Origin: an uncultured Gemmatimonadales bacterium
GTDB lineage: Bacteria; Gemmatimonadota; Gemmatimonadetes; Gemmatimonadales; GWC2-71-9
Length of the DNA: 64,000 nt
Reading direction: 5' to 3'
Assembly: GCA_963828735.1 (NCBI GenBank)
Contig: CAWHFW010000005.1
Span: 1,376,001 to 1,440,000 of the forward strand
Shown: one piece after another, positions 9,700 through 13,141 of the stretch
How the letters are laid out: each line of letters begins with the position of its first letter
Position numbering within the stretch: position 1 is the first letter of the stretch
Translations under genes and position numbers: made by a program
The notes under the pieces: model-generated
Database searches by the model: none
What the model saw: the letters and a program-made list of their open reading frames with translations, nothing else
Told to the model about the DNA's origin: nothing

Positions 9700-10125
9700 A
9701 TGCGACGCGGCGTTACCATCCTCGAGCTTGCGCTGGTCCTGGTCATCATGGGCCTGGTCACCGGCATCGCGGTGCCCCGGTTCCAGCGGGTCGCCGACGG
9801 CCTCGCGGTTCGCCACGCAGCCCTCGAAGTCGTCTCGGCACACCGGCGCGCCAGGATGAGCGCCATCCTTCAGAATCGCCTTCTCGAGCTCGTTGTCACC
9901 GCCGACACCCTCGCCATCCGGGTTCCCGGAGCGGCGGTCGATCTGTGGCACACCCCGGGGCCGGCGTCCGAGCGGGTGACACTCACGGGCCCCACACGAG
10001 GGCCCGTCTTTTCGCCGGTGGGCCTGACGGTAGGCGTGTCCAATGGGACGTATCGCCTGACTCGAGGCACAGCCACCATCTCGGTTATCGTCTCCCGTCT
10101 CGGTCGCATTCGGCTCGGACCGTGA
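9700..10125 (+). CDS. Prepilin-type N-terminal cleavage/methylation protein (FimT/GspH-like)
   Basis: MRRG|VTILELALVLVIMG type IV prepilin motif with E5, and a C-terminal GR motif. Confidence 0.85.
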   Translation: MRRGVTILELALVLVIMGLVTGIAVPRFQRVADGLAVRHAALEVVSAHRRARMSAILQNRLLELVVTADTLAIRVPGAAVDLWHTPGPASERVTLTGPTRGPVFSPVGLTVGVSNGTYRLTRGTATISVIVSRLGRIRLGP

Positions 10126-10212
10126 GCGCGCGGCCCCTCGGCTAGCTCGAAGGATGACGGCACCTTCGATGAGGGGTCGCGCGCTCAGAACGCGGGGCCG
10201 GTGTCCCCACGG

Positions 10213-10838: not shown

Positions 10839-11834
10839 GTGCTCGCGGCCGACCTCAGGTCGCTCCCGATCGGCACGCGGGTGGATTGTCCGATGCTGGT
10901 CATGGCGGTGGAGCGTCGCGACTCCAGTCGCGGCGGATTCGTCACGCTTTTGCTCGGCAACTCTCGTGGCCGGCTGTCGACATCGCCCTTCTGGCCGGAG
11001 GATCAAAGGCGTCTTCTTGGCATCGAGCCAGGCGTGGTGGCGCTGGTGGCGGGCGAGGTGGGGGAGTTCAACGGGCGGCGCCAGCTCAAGGTCACATCGC
11101 TCGTCGCGCTCCCGCGCGGCGCGGTCGATTGGCGCTGCCTCCTGCCGTCGGTCGCGTCGGTCACACCCTACTGGCGGGCGCTGGATCGGTGGCGCCGGGC
11201 GATCGCGGGACCGCGGCTTCGGCTCACGCTCGATCTGTTCTATGAGGACGAGGGCTTCCGCGGACGCTTCGAGTCGTGTCCCGCCAGCACCGCTGGACAC
11301 CATGCCGAGCTCGGTGGCCTGCTCCGTCACACCTGCGAGGTGGCGGCCATCGGGCGTGCCATCGCCTCCACGTGCCGGGCCGATCGCGACCTCGTGCTCG
11401 CGGGCGCGTTGCTTCACGACATCGGAAAGCTCGAGGCGTACCGCTGGGAGGGCGCGTTCGAGACCACCGCCTCCGGTGCCCTGCTGGGTCACGTCACGCT
11501 GGGCATGCTGATGCTCGATGACCGCCTCCGCCGCCAGGCGTCGCCACCGTGCACGGACGACGAGCGACGTCTTCTCCAGCACCTGATCGCGTCGCACCAC
11601 GGCCGCCAGGAGTTCGGCGCCGCGGTGCCGCCGATGACGCTCGAGGCGGAGATCCTCCATTTCGCGGACAACGCCAGCGCCAAGACCACCAGCATGGCCA
11701 ACGCACTCGCGGATCCTGACAACTTCCCGGCGGGCGAGCACCTCAGCGCGCGGTCGCTCTGGGAGCTGGACAGGCGGCGGGCATATCGCGGGTGGAGTGA
11801 TTGGGGGCGCGGAGACGACGGCACGAGGGGGTAG
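10839..11834 (+). CDS. YhaM/Cbf1-like OB-fold HD-domain 3'-5' exoribonuclease
   Basis: N-terminal OB-fold, HHAELGGLLRHT, LLHDIGK, LLGHV, ASHHG, EAEILHFADNASAK. Confidence 0.85.
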   Translation: MLAADLRSLPIGTRVDCPMLVMAVERRDSSRGGFVTLLLGNSRGRLSTSPFWPEDQRRLLGIEPGVVALVAGEVGEFNGRRQLKVTSLVALPRGAVDWRCLLPSVASVTPYWRALDRWRRAIAGPRLRLTLDLFYEDEGFRGRFESCPASTAGHHAELGGLLRHTCEVAAIGRAIASTCRADRDLVLAGALLHDIGKLEAYRWEGAFETTASGALLGHVTLGMLMLDDRLRRQASPPCTDDERRLLQHLIASHHGRQEFGAAVPPMTLEAEILHFADNASAKTTSMANALADPDNFPAGEHLSARSLWELDRRRAYRGWSDWGRGDDGTRG

Positions 11835-11875
11835 AAAACGGAACGGCCGCCTAGTCGTGGCTAGACGGCCGTCCC
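11835..11875 (-). terminator. Intrinsic terminator for the minus-strand transcript (may also serve the convergent gene)
   Basis: Minus strand GGGACGGCCGUCUAG-CCACGA-CUAGGCGGCCGUUCC followed by GUUUU. Confidence 0.75.
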
Positions 11876-12263
11876 ACGTATGGACTATTCGAGGTCGGGG
11901 CATCGCTGCCACCGTTCTTCTCCTACCTGCCACCGGTTGGCTGATACGCCGCTCGGGAGGGCAAGGTAGAGCCTCGATTTCGATCCCCAGGCCGGATGGC
12001 CATCCCACCTGGTTCGTCCATTCGAGCGCTGCGAGTCAGATCGGGTCGCGGACCGACCGTTCGCACTGCACCCCGAGGCGCAAGATCGGAGTGGATGAAG
12101 CACGCGACTGGCTTCACCTGTTCGAGCCGGGGTGATCACCGGGATCAACGAGAGCCTGAGCCCTTGGTTGCGTCGGCCCCCTCCCCCGATATCCCGCTCG
12201 AACCCGCTTGGCCGGCCGTTACTGTGACTCGGGGTCTCAGCACGTGTCCTTCCTAGCGCGTGG
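11835..12263 (-). ncRNA. Candidate large structured non-coding RNA (~430 nt), class unknown
   Basis: At least nine mutually compatible nested helices, a GNRA tetraloop, G-U pairs favouring the minus strand, an upstream sigma70-like promoter, a downstream terminator, and no convincing ORF. Confidence 0.65.
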
Positions 12264-12267
12264 AACT

Positions 12268-12295
12268 AAAATAGGCACCCGCGAGGATCTCGCAA
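12268..12295 (-). promoter_or_regulatory. Sigma70-like promoter TTGCGA-N16-TATTTT embedded in an inverted repeat
   Basis: -35 at 12295-12290 and -10 at 12273-12268. Dyad TAAAATAGGCAC...GTGCCTGATTTTA spans 12267-12308. Confidence 0.5.
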
Positions 12296-12339
12296 GTGCC
12301 TGATTTTATTCGGGTTACGTCAACTCTGTCTGTGTAGGA

Positions 12340-12411
12340 TGTGGATTCGTAACCCGTGCCTGCCGCGCACCCTAGCCGCTCCATCCACACGATGTGGACA
12401 TGTGAATCCAC
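12340..12411. promoter_or_regulatory. Cluster of four DnaA-box-like 9-mers
   Basis: TGTGGATTC 12340, CCATCCACA 12380, TGTGGACAT 12392, GAATCCACA 12403. Each has 2 mismatches to TTATCCACA and keeps the TCCACA core. Confidence 0.4.
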
Positions 12412-12427
12412 ACTTTCACCCGACCCC

Positions 12428-13039
12428 TCAGGACTCGAGGCCGACCTCCACATACCGGTAGGTTGCATCGGGATCAGGCGAGCCGAACAGGCAGCCGGCG
12501 TTGCTGGCTGCGAACCAGCCCGCCACCAGCGGCCGTGGGACGTCCAGTTGGTGAATGATCTGACCGAGCCAGCGCCGCAGGTGCCGAAGCTCCGGAGCAC
12601 GGCGGCCCAGCATGGCGAGCAAAGCACCGGCGCCGGACGTGGCGCGGAGAAAGTGGGCCAGGGCGTGGGCGCGCTGGGTGAACTCCACAGCCTTCACCCC
12701 GGGCTCGTCGAAGAGAACGGCGCCCTCGTAGACGTCCATCGGCGGCGCGTCGAGACGCGGACCCAAGTAGACGTACCGCCGCCCTTGAGGACCTTTCCGC
12801 TCCACCACGGCCGCGGCGGTCTCGCTTGTGAGCCGCGCGGCATGCAGGAGATCGTCGTCGAGCAGGATCCCGACGGCACCGGTCCACTCGAGCGCGGCGA
12901 GCGCGTTCTCGACCGGGCACCCCAGTGTGTCGTCGAACGCTAGGACCCGTGGGGCTTCCCCCGCGCGGAGGACGAAGTGGGAGAGGCCTTCGGCTCGATC
13001 GGTGAAGGTGCGAACCACCAACGCTTGTGGTGAGGTCAT
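12428..13039 (-). CDS. Hypothetical protein with internal two-fold repeat
   Basis: Coding-like ORF. FTDRAEGLSHFVLRAG and FTQRAHALAHFLRAT form a duplicated motif. Confidence 0.7.
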   Translation of the reverse strand: MTSPQALVVRTFTDRAEGLSHFVLRAGEAPRVLAFDDTLGCPVENALAALEWTGAVGILLDDDLLHAARLTSETAAAVVERKGPQGRRYVYLGPRLDAPPMDVYEGAVLFDEPGVKAVEFTQRAHALAHFLRATSGAGALLAMLGRRAPELRHLRRWLGQIIHQLDVPRPLVAGWFAASNAGCLFGSPDPDATYRYVEVGLES

Positions 13040-13141
13040 GGGCATCAATCTAAGGGGATTCCGGCCGTCGCGTTACCGGAATGGCCCCGTCGGGATGCGC
13101 GGGCTACCTTTGAACAGAGCCAGCTCATCCCGGAGACGCGC

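Follow-up and report, generated by a model that had tools for sequence, protein, structure and literature searches.

Large, ornate classes of bacterial noncoding RNA are few, and those of known function do fundamental jobs. Precedents for a large orphan RNA are OLE, raiA, ROOL, and GOLLD. OLE is ∼600 nt long, compared with ∼425 nt for the RNA described here, and its gene is linked to an adjacent protein gene. This linkage is alluded to in PMC10861870. OLE, with OapA/OapC, has a palindromic loop that switches from GGCC to GAUC, and ROOL and GOLLD are ornate RNAs with kissing loops between chains (PMC12286853). The raiA motif (RF03072) is an abundant, trans-acting RNA that has a compact core with two pseudoknots, arms that are optional, and a minimal variant (PMC12968392, PMC10861870). 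Like the RNA described here, 6S RNA (RF00013) and Ms1 are products of stand-alone RNA genes of the 200- to 400-nt class with a sigma-70 promoter and an intrinsic terminator; 6S contains a ∼180-nt rod with a central bubble, and Ms1, at ∼300 nt, has a central bubble, terminal hairpins, and synteny with HAD-hydrolase/oxidoreductase genes (PMC9130861).

We analyzed a 64,000-nt stretch (the window) of the genome of an uncultured Gemmatimonadales bacterium, for which an initial annotation had proposed that the minus strand encodes a large structured RNA that stands alone, belongs to a possibly undescribed class, and is served by a dedicated promoter and terminator. Our analyses support that proposal. 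The gene and its surroundings are laid out as follows, in window positions:

11835 to 12261, minus strand: noncoding RNA of ∼425 nt, its ends placed by the promoter and terminator
12268 to 12295, minus strand: sigma-70-type promoter (−35 TTGCGA at 12295-12290, 16-nt spacer, −10 TATTTT at 12273-12268)
12309 to 12318, minus strand: conserved upstream element GTAACCCGAA, also in the promoter consensus
12340 to 12452, no strand given: five TCCACA/TGTGGA hexamers, clustered upstream of the promoter
11835 to 11875, minus strand: intrinsic terminator, a covarying 16-bp hairpin plus U tract
12428 to 13048, minus strand: orphan protein gene (203 to 206 aa) beside the RNA, candidate RNA partner
10839 to 11834, plus strand: YhaM-like HD-domain gene, convergent with the RNA (PF01966; NF010007, E 5.7e-31, under its cut-off)

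The complementary stretches listed in the initial annotation, the TTGCGA-N16-TATTTT promoter, and the U-tailed hairpin (11875-11835) are all present in the sequence. Comparison of homologs revealed that both promoter boxes are conserved and that the spacer is variable; the promoter pattern was present in 175 of 198 unique loci, and GTAACCCGAA in 149 of the 175 family loci having an identified promoter. The promoter at 12268 to 12295 is absent from the list of a consensus promoter scan, and the terminator at 11835 to 11875 from that of a simple terminator scan. In the terminator hairpin, 87% of alignment cells are paired, with two-sided changes at 14 of 16 pairs. Sequence conservation begins at the promoter elements and stops past the U tract, and the three ORFs that overlap the RNA are open and in frame in only 16, 15, and 12 of 93 homologs. 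Main-form RNAs have a median length of 425 nt, 103 of the 122 measured falling within 400 to 449 nt by a rough heuristic. Both the main copies and the extra copies described below have their own promoter and terminator. The next gene is convergent in the window and in all eight sister-family loci examined, the terminator follows in every form of the RNA, and no common gene lies 3′ of the extra copies. Judged by this comparative record, the locus is an independent noncoding gene. These same features make it extremely unlikely that the RNA is a riboswitch or other cis-regulatory leader, although a co-oriented response-regulator/Fis gene does lie past the terminator in some genomes. A 13-bp hairpin with a T tail (12273-12301) overlies the RNA promoter and could terminate the orphan-gene mRNA; this hairpin is not conserved, and the spacer lacks self-complementarity in most homologs.

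The hexamer cluster at 12340 to 12452 is the sole 150-nt stretch in the genome with five such hexamers (background, 0.25 per kb), and at least three related hexamers occur in 120 of 128 main-copy promoters, versus 0.45 expected. The cluster resembles degenerate DnaA boxes and is a putative regulator site. A further TCCACA-rich stretch of the same genome (contig C2, ∼467300) lies upstream of a putative class II ribonucleotide reductase gene, and its hexamers may be NrdR boxes. The genome also contains a 770-aa open frame with two Bac_DnaA domains (C2:232565-234214); the canonical dnaA is at C5:1603453.

Folding energies agreed with the claimed minus strand, which gave z = −3.16 (1 of 100 shuffles equally good), whereas the plus strand, at z = −0.57, was no better than shuffles. 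Once the terminator was removed, the minus-strand score was only −1.49, with 4 of 60 shuffles equally good. Thus, the case for the RNA is carried by covariation and not by energy.

The claim of novelty also stood: Rfam 15 gave no match in the window at the gathering threshold, and when relaxed to E 10 its best match at the locus had an E of 9.6, with no ribozyme or riboswitch among the matches. At an extra copy, the best match (E 0.23) was a terminator-driven one to Pxr. Likenesses to group I intron P4/P5, the TPP riboswitch, and a k-turn, seen by eye, were dropped for want of Rfam support. The RNA is neither RNase P nor tmRNA, whose signatures the initial annotation had found lacking; the genome's RNase P (C5:1597854) and two tmRNAs lie elsewhere. 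The two tmRNA genes, found with ARAGORN at C4:172777-173139 and C5:2756475-2756829, encode different tag peptides; the contamination estimate for the genome is 5.2%. Our literature search found no description of the RNA, and recent (2026) preprint catalogues of prokaryotic noncoding space do not contain the string "Gemmatimona-" in their main text, while their supplements might include the motif. We are all but certain that this is a real noncoding RNA class outside Rfam.

The constant element of the RNA is a ∼95-nt core (12118-12025), in which three hairpins are locked by two pseudoknots:

12094 to 12118, minus strand: core hairpin A (96.5% paired, two-sided changes at 7 of 8 pairs)
12069 to 12093, minus strand: core hairpin B (98.8% paired, two-sided changes at 6 of 8 pairs)
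12030 to 12065, minus strand: core hairpin C, with a purine-rich internal loop (stems 96% paired)
12025 to 12029, minus strand: GCGCU strand pairing with loop B as pseudoknot 2 (99.7% paired)

The loop of hairpin A, GUCGCG (12108-12103), is the 5′ strand of pseudoknot 1 and kisses the hairpin C loop, CGCGAC (12050-12045); this pseudoknot is 98.1% paired, with two-sided changes at 3 of 6 pairs (GC/AU/CG/UG; CG to AU; GC to AU). The loop of hairpin B, UGCGC (12082-12078), is the 5′ strand of pseudoknot 2, which has two-sided changes at 2 of 5 pairs (CG to UA, 8 rows; GC to AU, 1 row). Over the whole core, 97.5% of 2278 cells are paired and two-sided changes occur at 28 of 38 pairs in a set of 60 cores <93% identical, taken from 103 unique cores; one truncated row, unpublished rows, and rows present only in the first alignment were left out. 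None of 500 shuffles, which are uncorrected for relatedness among rows, scored as high, and slid controls were 33 to 42% paired. RNAalifold, run on 26 rows, returned 120 pairs, 60 of them with two-sided changes. Mutual-information ranking is confounded by phylogeny and was not used for new pairs. Comparison of homologs shows that the three adjacent hairpins form a compact core, which two pseudoknots close.

The initial annotation had drawn a fully nested, two-domain fold. We scored its helices on 93 long-form homologs <90% identical, chosen from 129 rows. The local helices, like the terminator, were borne out; the cells paired amounted to 89% for the long-arm base, 99% for GUGAAGC/GCUUCAU, 90% for AUGGAC/GUCCAU, 87% for CCAGG/CCUGG, 97% for UCGAGG/CCUCGA, 90% for UGCC/GGCA, and 91% for GGCA/UGCC. 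Support for the CUCUACC arm base was only partial (49 to 79% paired, depending on register). Neither long-range helix held: the end-closing CCACG/CGUGG is 63% paired, with no more than a single pair broken in 38 of 93 rows, whereas the helix proposed to close domain 1 is 76% and 70% paired (47 and 23 of 93 rows). The 3′ strands of both instead contribute to hairpins B and C, which are local (98%; 92 of 93 rows). The nested drawing had overlooked the two pseudoknots.

Small ribozymes typically hold double pseudoknots, and the RNA could be a ribozyme or ligand-binding RNA, with the core as its active site and the orphan protein as a cofactor or unrelated. Across 93 diverse rows, conservation reaches ≥95% in 95 of 455 columns, many of which are unpaired positions, and the core alone is retained as a gene. 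However, Rfam yielded no ribozyme or riboswitch up to E 10, there is no linked substrate, exon, or mobile gene, and the minimal genes lack flanking RNA to process; we consider such an activity unlikely.

The core also invites comparison with raiA. The 9-mer GCCAGUCGC occurs in 142 of 198 family loci and is, in both RNAs, a hairpin loop that forms a 6-bp pseudoknot (PMC12968392); each RNA also has a pair of pseudoknots, peripheral arms that are optional, and a minimal core of ∼110 nt. The RNA could on these grounds be a remote, rewired relative of the raiA motif (ModT) that keeps the P3b-loop/PK1 module, but the 9-mer match is partly built in, because the raiA set was gathered by a pattern containing that 9-mer. 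RF03072 had no match at the locus, and its sole match in the genome (E 1.34) lies elsewhere; as a positive control, it placed 18 of 20 pattern loci above gathering, and on three actinobacterial genomes it matched nowhere, controls included, which makes that comparison uninformative. Conversely, our model R2 reached a best E of only 0.65 in 32 raiA-pattern loci, and profile-to-sequence comparisons a best E of 0.7, so that no model or profile match is significant. The connectivity differs as well. The closing P1 of raiA, which has GU and GGU bulges, joins the 5′ and 3′ ends, and is described by He et al. as remarkably conserved (PMC12968392), is absent here, where the end-closing helix is the poorly kept one noted above and minimal forms begin at hairpin A; in place of a linker inside P4, the strand that completes PK1 in this RNA belongs to a hairpin loop lying outside helix B. 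In raiA, the three-dimensional core is a triangle made of P3a-P3b, P4, PK1, and PK2. The Gemmatimonadales RNA also has extra copies and a candidate partner gene, whereas Soares et al. (PMC10861870) found no partner gene for raiA. Kinship with raiA appears quite improbable.

Around the core lie modules that vary among homologs:

12205 to 12258, minus strand: variable 5′ domain with helices P1 (12258-55/12208-05) and P2 (12242-38/12224-20), 73% and 84% paired, with two-sided changes
12120 to 12203, minus strand: long arm P3, an optional module, 89 to 94% paired
11877 to 12024, minus strand: 3′ multi-helix domain D, with D1 (12024-16/11885-77), D3 (11977-72/11894-89), and arms D4 and D5
11987 to 12012, minus strand: hairpin D2, with the self-complementary loop GGCC (12001-11998), a predicted symmetric dimer contact

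The alignments show that the core is kept in every copy and that the 5′ domain, long arm, and 3′ domain are optional. The 5′ domain is missing from extra copies and minimal forms. P3 has conserved internal-loop motifs (GGGGAG and GAUCC), its upper part is deleted in L036 and L040, and many extra copies have a short hairpin instead. Domain D has conserved linkers (GAAC, GGGAUNGAA, and AGAAGAAC); D1 is 90% paired with two-sided changes at 9 of 9 pairs, and D3 is 97% paired. This domain is partly or wholly lost in L044, L045, L047, and L131-L134. In several lineages the upper half of the long arm, domain D, or everything 5′ of the core is gone, and natural lengths range from ∼150-200 nt up to ∼425 nt. 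The minimal genes (L044, L131-L133) consist of the core and little else, and in the shortest forms the promoter comes directly before hairpin A.

This modularity bears on a role as an RNA-polymerase-binding RNA, 6S- or Ms1-like, which the initial annotation had put forward. The polymerase form bound is the holoenzyme for 6S and the core enzyme for Ms1. In its favor, the size is near that of Ms1 (PMC9130861), P3 is a long rod with internal loops, and RF00013 was found in 0 of 72 and 0 of 2 genomes of the RNA-carrying families (12 of 150 overall). However, P3 can be lost, and what stays invariant is a compact, pseudoknotted core with neither a rod with a central bubble nor an open-promoter-like bubble. 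Rfam matched neither 6S nor Ms1 at E values of up to 10, the fold and neighbors differ from those described for Ms1, and the genome has a separate 6S candidate (C2:729266-729121, E 8.5e-11), whose downstream gene is the one that also follows 6S in class-mates. The suggestion is weakened to the point where we regard it as very unlikely. The candidate itself, which Rfam does not detect, emerged from synteny and a profile of 12 phylum sequences, one of them the unpublished G126, which place a probable 6S RNA at C2:729286-729116 (minus strand; locus L388). Because RF00013 scores 0 of 72, the family's 6S may be generally unannotated.

Hairpin D2 provides a signature of a different kind. Among 129 long rows its apex is GGCC in 121, GAUC in 4, GCGC in 1, and nonpalindromic in 3. 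The GAUC rows represent three lineages, in which only the two adjacent central bases deviate from the consensus; overall, the change to GAUC or GCGC took place in four independent lineages, each time with the two adjacent bases changing together and the palindrome kept. The closest relatives of L256 and L201 (92% identical) carry GGCC, and no further conserved column changes alongside the loop in the 129 rows. Adjacent bases are unable to pair with each other inside one chain. In OLE, bridge B3, seen by cryo-EM, is marked by the same switch (GGCC to GAUC or AGCU), which Kretsch et al. took as support for an intermolecular bridge of the OLE dimer (PMC12286853); in the Gemmatimonadales RNA the likeness is a sequence signature only. 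The full-length RNA probably dimerizes by symmetric kissing of two GGCC loops. The palindrome is absent from most extra copies (24 of 36 rows so classed), as it is from the three nonpalindromic main rows, and dimerization would not be universal, because minimal forms lack hairpin D2.

In other respects the RNA differs from these precedents. It has no Rfam match to OLE, belongs to another phylum, and has a core that can stand alone; the OLE partner is a membrane protein, whereas the orphan protein model described below looks soluble. Compared with ROOL and GOLLD, it likewise lacks an Rfam match and is smaller, chromosomal, and near-universal in its clade, with no true match in the viral contigs scanned.

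In the genomes sampled, the RNA is confined to one clade. BLASTN located the stretch in 30 of 41 genomes, with 21 of 24 in its own genus, 8 of 8 in the sister family (∼72% identity), and none among 8 of a third family. Two core covariance models each matched 74 of 150 Gemmatimonadota genomes (one, G087, unpublished). The matches comprise 71 of the 72 genomes of the same family and both sister-family genomes, with none among 75 genomes from ten further families. By record title, carriers are Gemmatimonadales or Gemmatimonadota. An exact core pattern run over genome contigs of all species found at least 119 stretches; among the matches listed, 75 of 80 titled stretches were Gemmatimonadota. The other five fail model R2 and are apparent coding DNA, and two viral pattern matches were chance ones that also fail the model.

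Two or three RNA copies occur in 19 of the 74 genomes, including the one studied here, where a second copy is present:

C7:∼37205-36885 (L062, ∼9886-10205), minus strand: second RNA copy, ∼315 nt, with its own promoter and terminator

In this copy a short hairpin replaces the 5′ domain and the GGCC apex is missing; its neighbor is a UPF0182 gene. In a midpoint-rooted FastTree phylogeny of 78 of 168 rows, 21 extra copies from across genera form one clade (support 0.877), a pattern as after an old duplication, to judge from the tree. Several of 21 extra-copy loci adjoin Usp, CBS, BON, Hsp20, RtcB/S30AE, or phosphoribosyltransferase genes, some of these neighbors being stress or dormancy genes, which favors a stress link; many extra copies adjoin unrelated genes (MFS, SnoaL, UPF0182), and none has the orphan gene alongside. 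At L063:4545-6600, an extra copy lies immediately 3′ of rtcB and of a gene from the ribosome-hibernation family S30AE; a gene of this latter type is what usually follows raiA RNA. The multiple copies and their varied neighbors would suit a selfish or mobile RNA element or a nonautonomous repeat. However, 73 of 74 genomes have one syntenic main copy, the extra copies form the one old-looking clade, no transposase, integrase, or reverse transcriptase occurs among 80 flanking ORFs, and the viral matches fail the model. A mobile origin is therefore highly improbable.

The orphan protein gene has the same distribution as the RNA, namely the same 74 of 150 genomes by both single-sequence and profile searches, and in 73 of the 74 an RNA core is no more than 963 nt away, the exception being an RNA near a contig end. 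Only one sampled family genome, G107 (97% complete), lacks both RNA and orphan gene, through joint loss or a missing contig. The gene is upstream of and co-oriented with the RNA here and downstream and convergent in 8 of 8 sister-family loci. Its product matches no family in Pfam or NCBIfam and is mildly acidic (pI 5.87; 20 R+K versus 24 D+E), and 12 of its 18 arginines are ≥95% conserved in 74 rows, an alignment that close homologs dominate. The structural model is confident (pLDDT 82.8) and shows a soluble-looking mixed α/β domain, apparently composed of two α/β repeats. No usable match was found in the ESM Atlas (best 0.86, leads only), PDB sequences, the Foldseek PDB and viral sets, or with VIA-align (best Z 5.2, rmsd 2.5-3.0, 56 to 68 residues aligned), which does not establish a new fold. 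The orphan protein may well be a dedicated partner that binds the pseudoknotted core, though we stop short of calling this probable: RNA and gene are both confined to one clade, and the partnership is put forward conditionally because shared ancestry alone can account for their co-occurrence.

The YhaM-like gene, named in the initial annotation as the neighbor of the RNA, does adjoin it here but proved not to be a constant partner. Of 72 family genomes, 40 have it; it was not found in the other 32, and almost all of these retain both the RNA and the orphan gene. In a family that has neither of the two, 16 of 31 genomes carry it. The YhaM-like gene is a neighbor, not an obligate partner. Y RNA tethers the Ro protein to PNPase, and by analogy the RNA could tether the orphan protein to the YhaM-like 3′-5′ exonuclease, whose gene lies directly past the orphan gene in 5 of 8 sister-family loci. 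The counts just given, together with the lack of any R2 match by yhaM in 15 outgroup loci (best E 0.54), leave this reading only a slim chance.

Sequences of the RNA are present in environmental RNA data. Among 24 listed runs, 19 RNA-labeled ones (soil or plant, 11 studies) hold the RNA query, containing 26 to 35% of the words sampled from its 751 nt. Contigs free of differences came from four studies: X1 (11988-12272), X3 (11988-12250), X18 (11988-12140), and X6 (12152-12249). In three of the four runs examined, contigs fall on the RNA and not on adjacent genes; X18 covers three RNA bins only, and X3 and X6 cover RNA bins and a cold-shock gene only, the uncovered flanking genes in these three being no sign of silence. 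X1 covers 22 of 30 bins, and one of its contigs reaches 12272, inside the promoter. Because the runs were chosen by this sequence and consist of contigs, they do not give strand, ends, or level.

Taken with the fold, these observations are compatible with a model in which a sigma-70 promoter transcribes a stand-alone ∼425-nt RNA that would act in trans as the scaffold of a ribonucleoprotein particle built on the double-pseudoknot core. The long form would dimerize through GGCC-GGCC kissing loops, and the adjacent orphan protein would bind the core. That the RNA is such a trans-acting structural scaffold, OLE- or raiA-like, is in our judgment plausible, at somewhat less than an even chance. The particle might serve under stress or during dormancy or slow growth. 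A TCCACA-binding regulator, DnaA being one possibility, would act at the main promoter, and the extra copies would be controlled in some other way; this role and its regulation are speculative and, on balance, doubtful.

The family supplies natural controls in the form of a deletion series down to the core, a palindrome-free second subfamily, compensatory pseudoknot variants, and one candidate protein partner. Therefore, the claims of structure, dimerization, and binding are testable in vitro without culture of the host. The RNA is new as a class, failing every family tested, and it is near-universal in a major soil-bacterial lineage and present in the soil RNA data sets of 11 studies. Tentatively, it may represent a housekeeping-grade, abundant RNA class with a new double-pseudoknot fold, which would dimerize with itself, form a ribonucleoprotein with a protein of new fold, and carry out a catalytic or dormancy-control function without known counterpart, the ∼150-200-nt forms being its working minimum.
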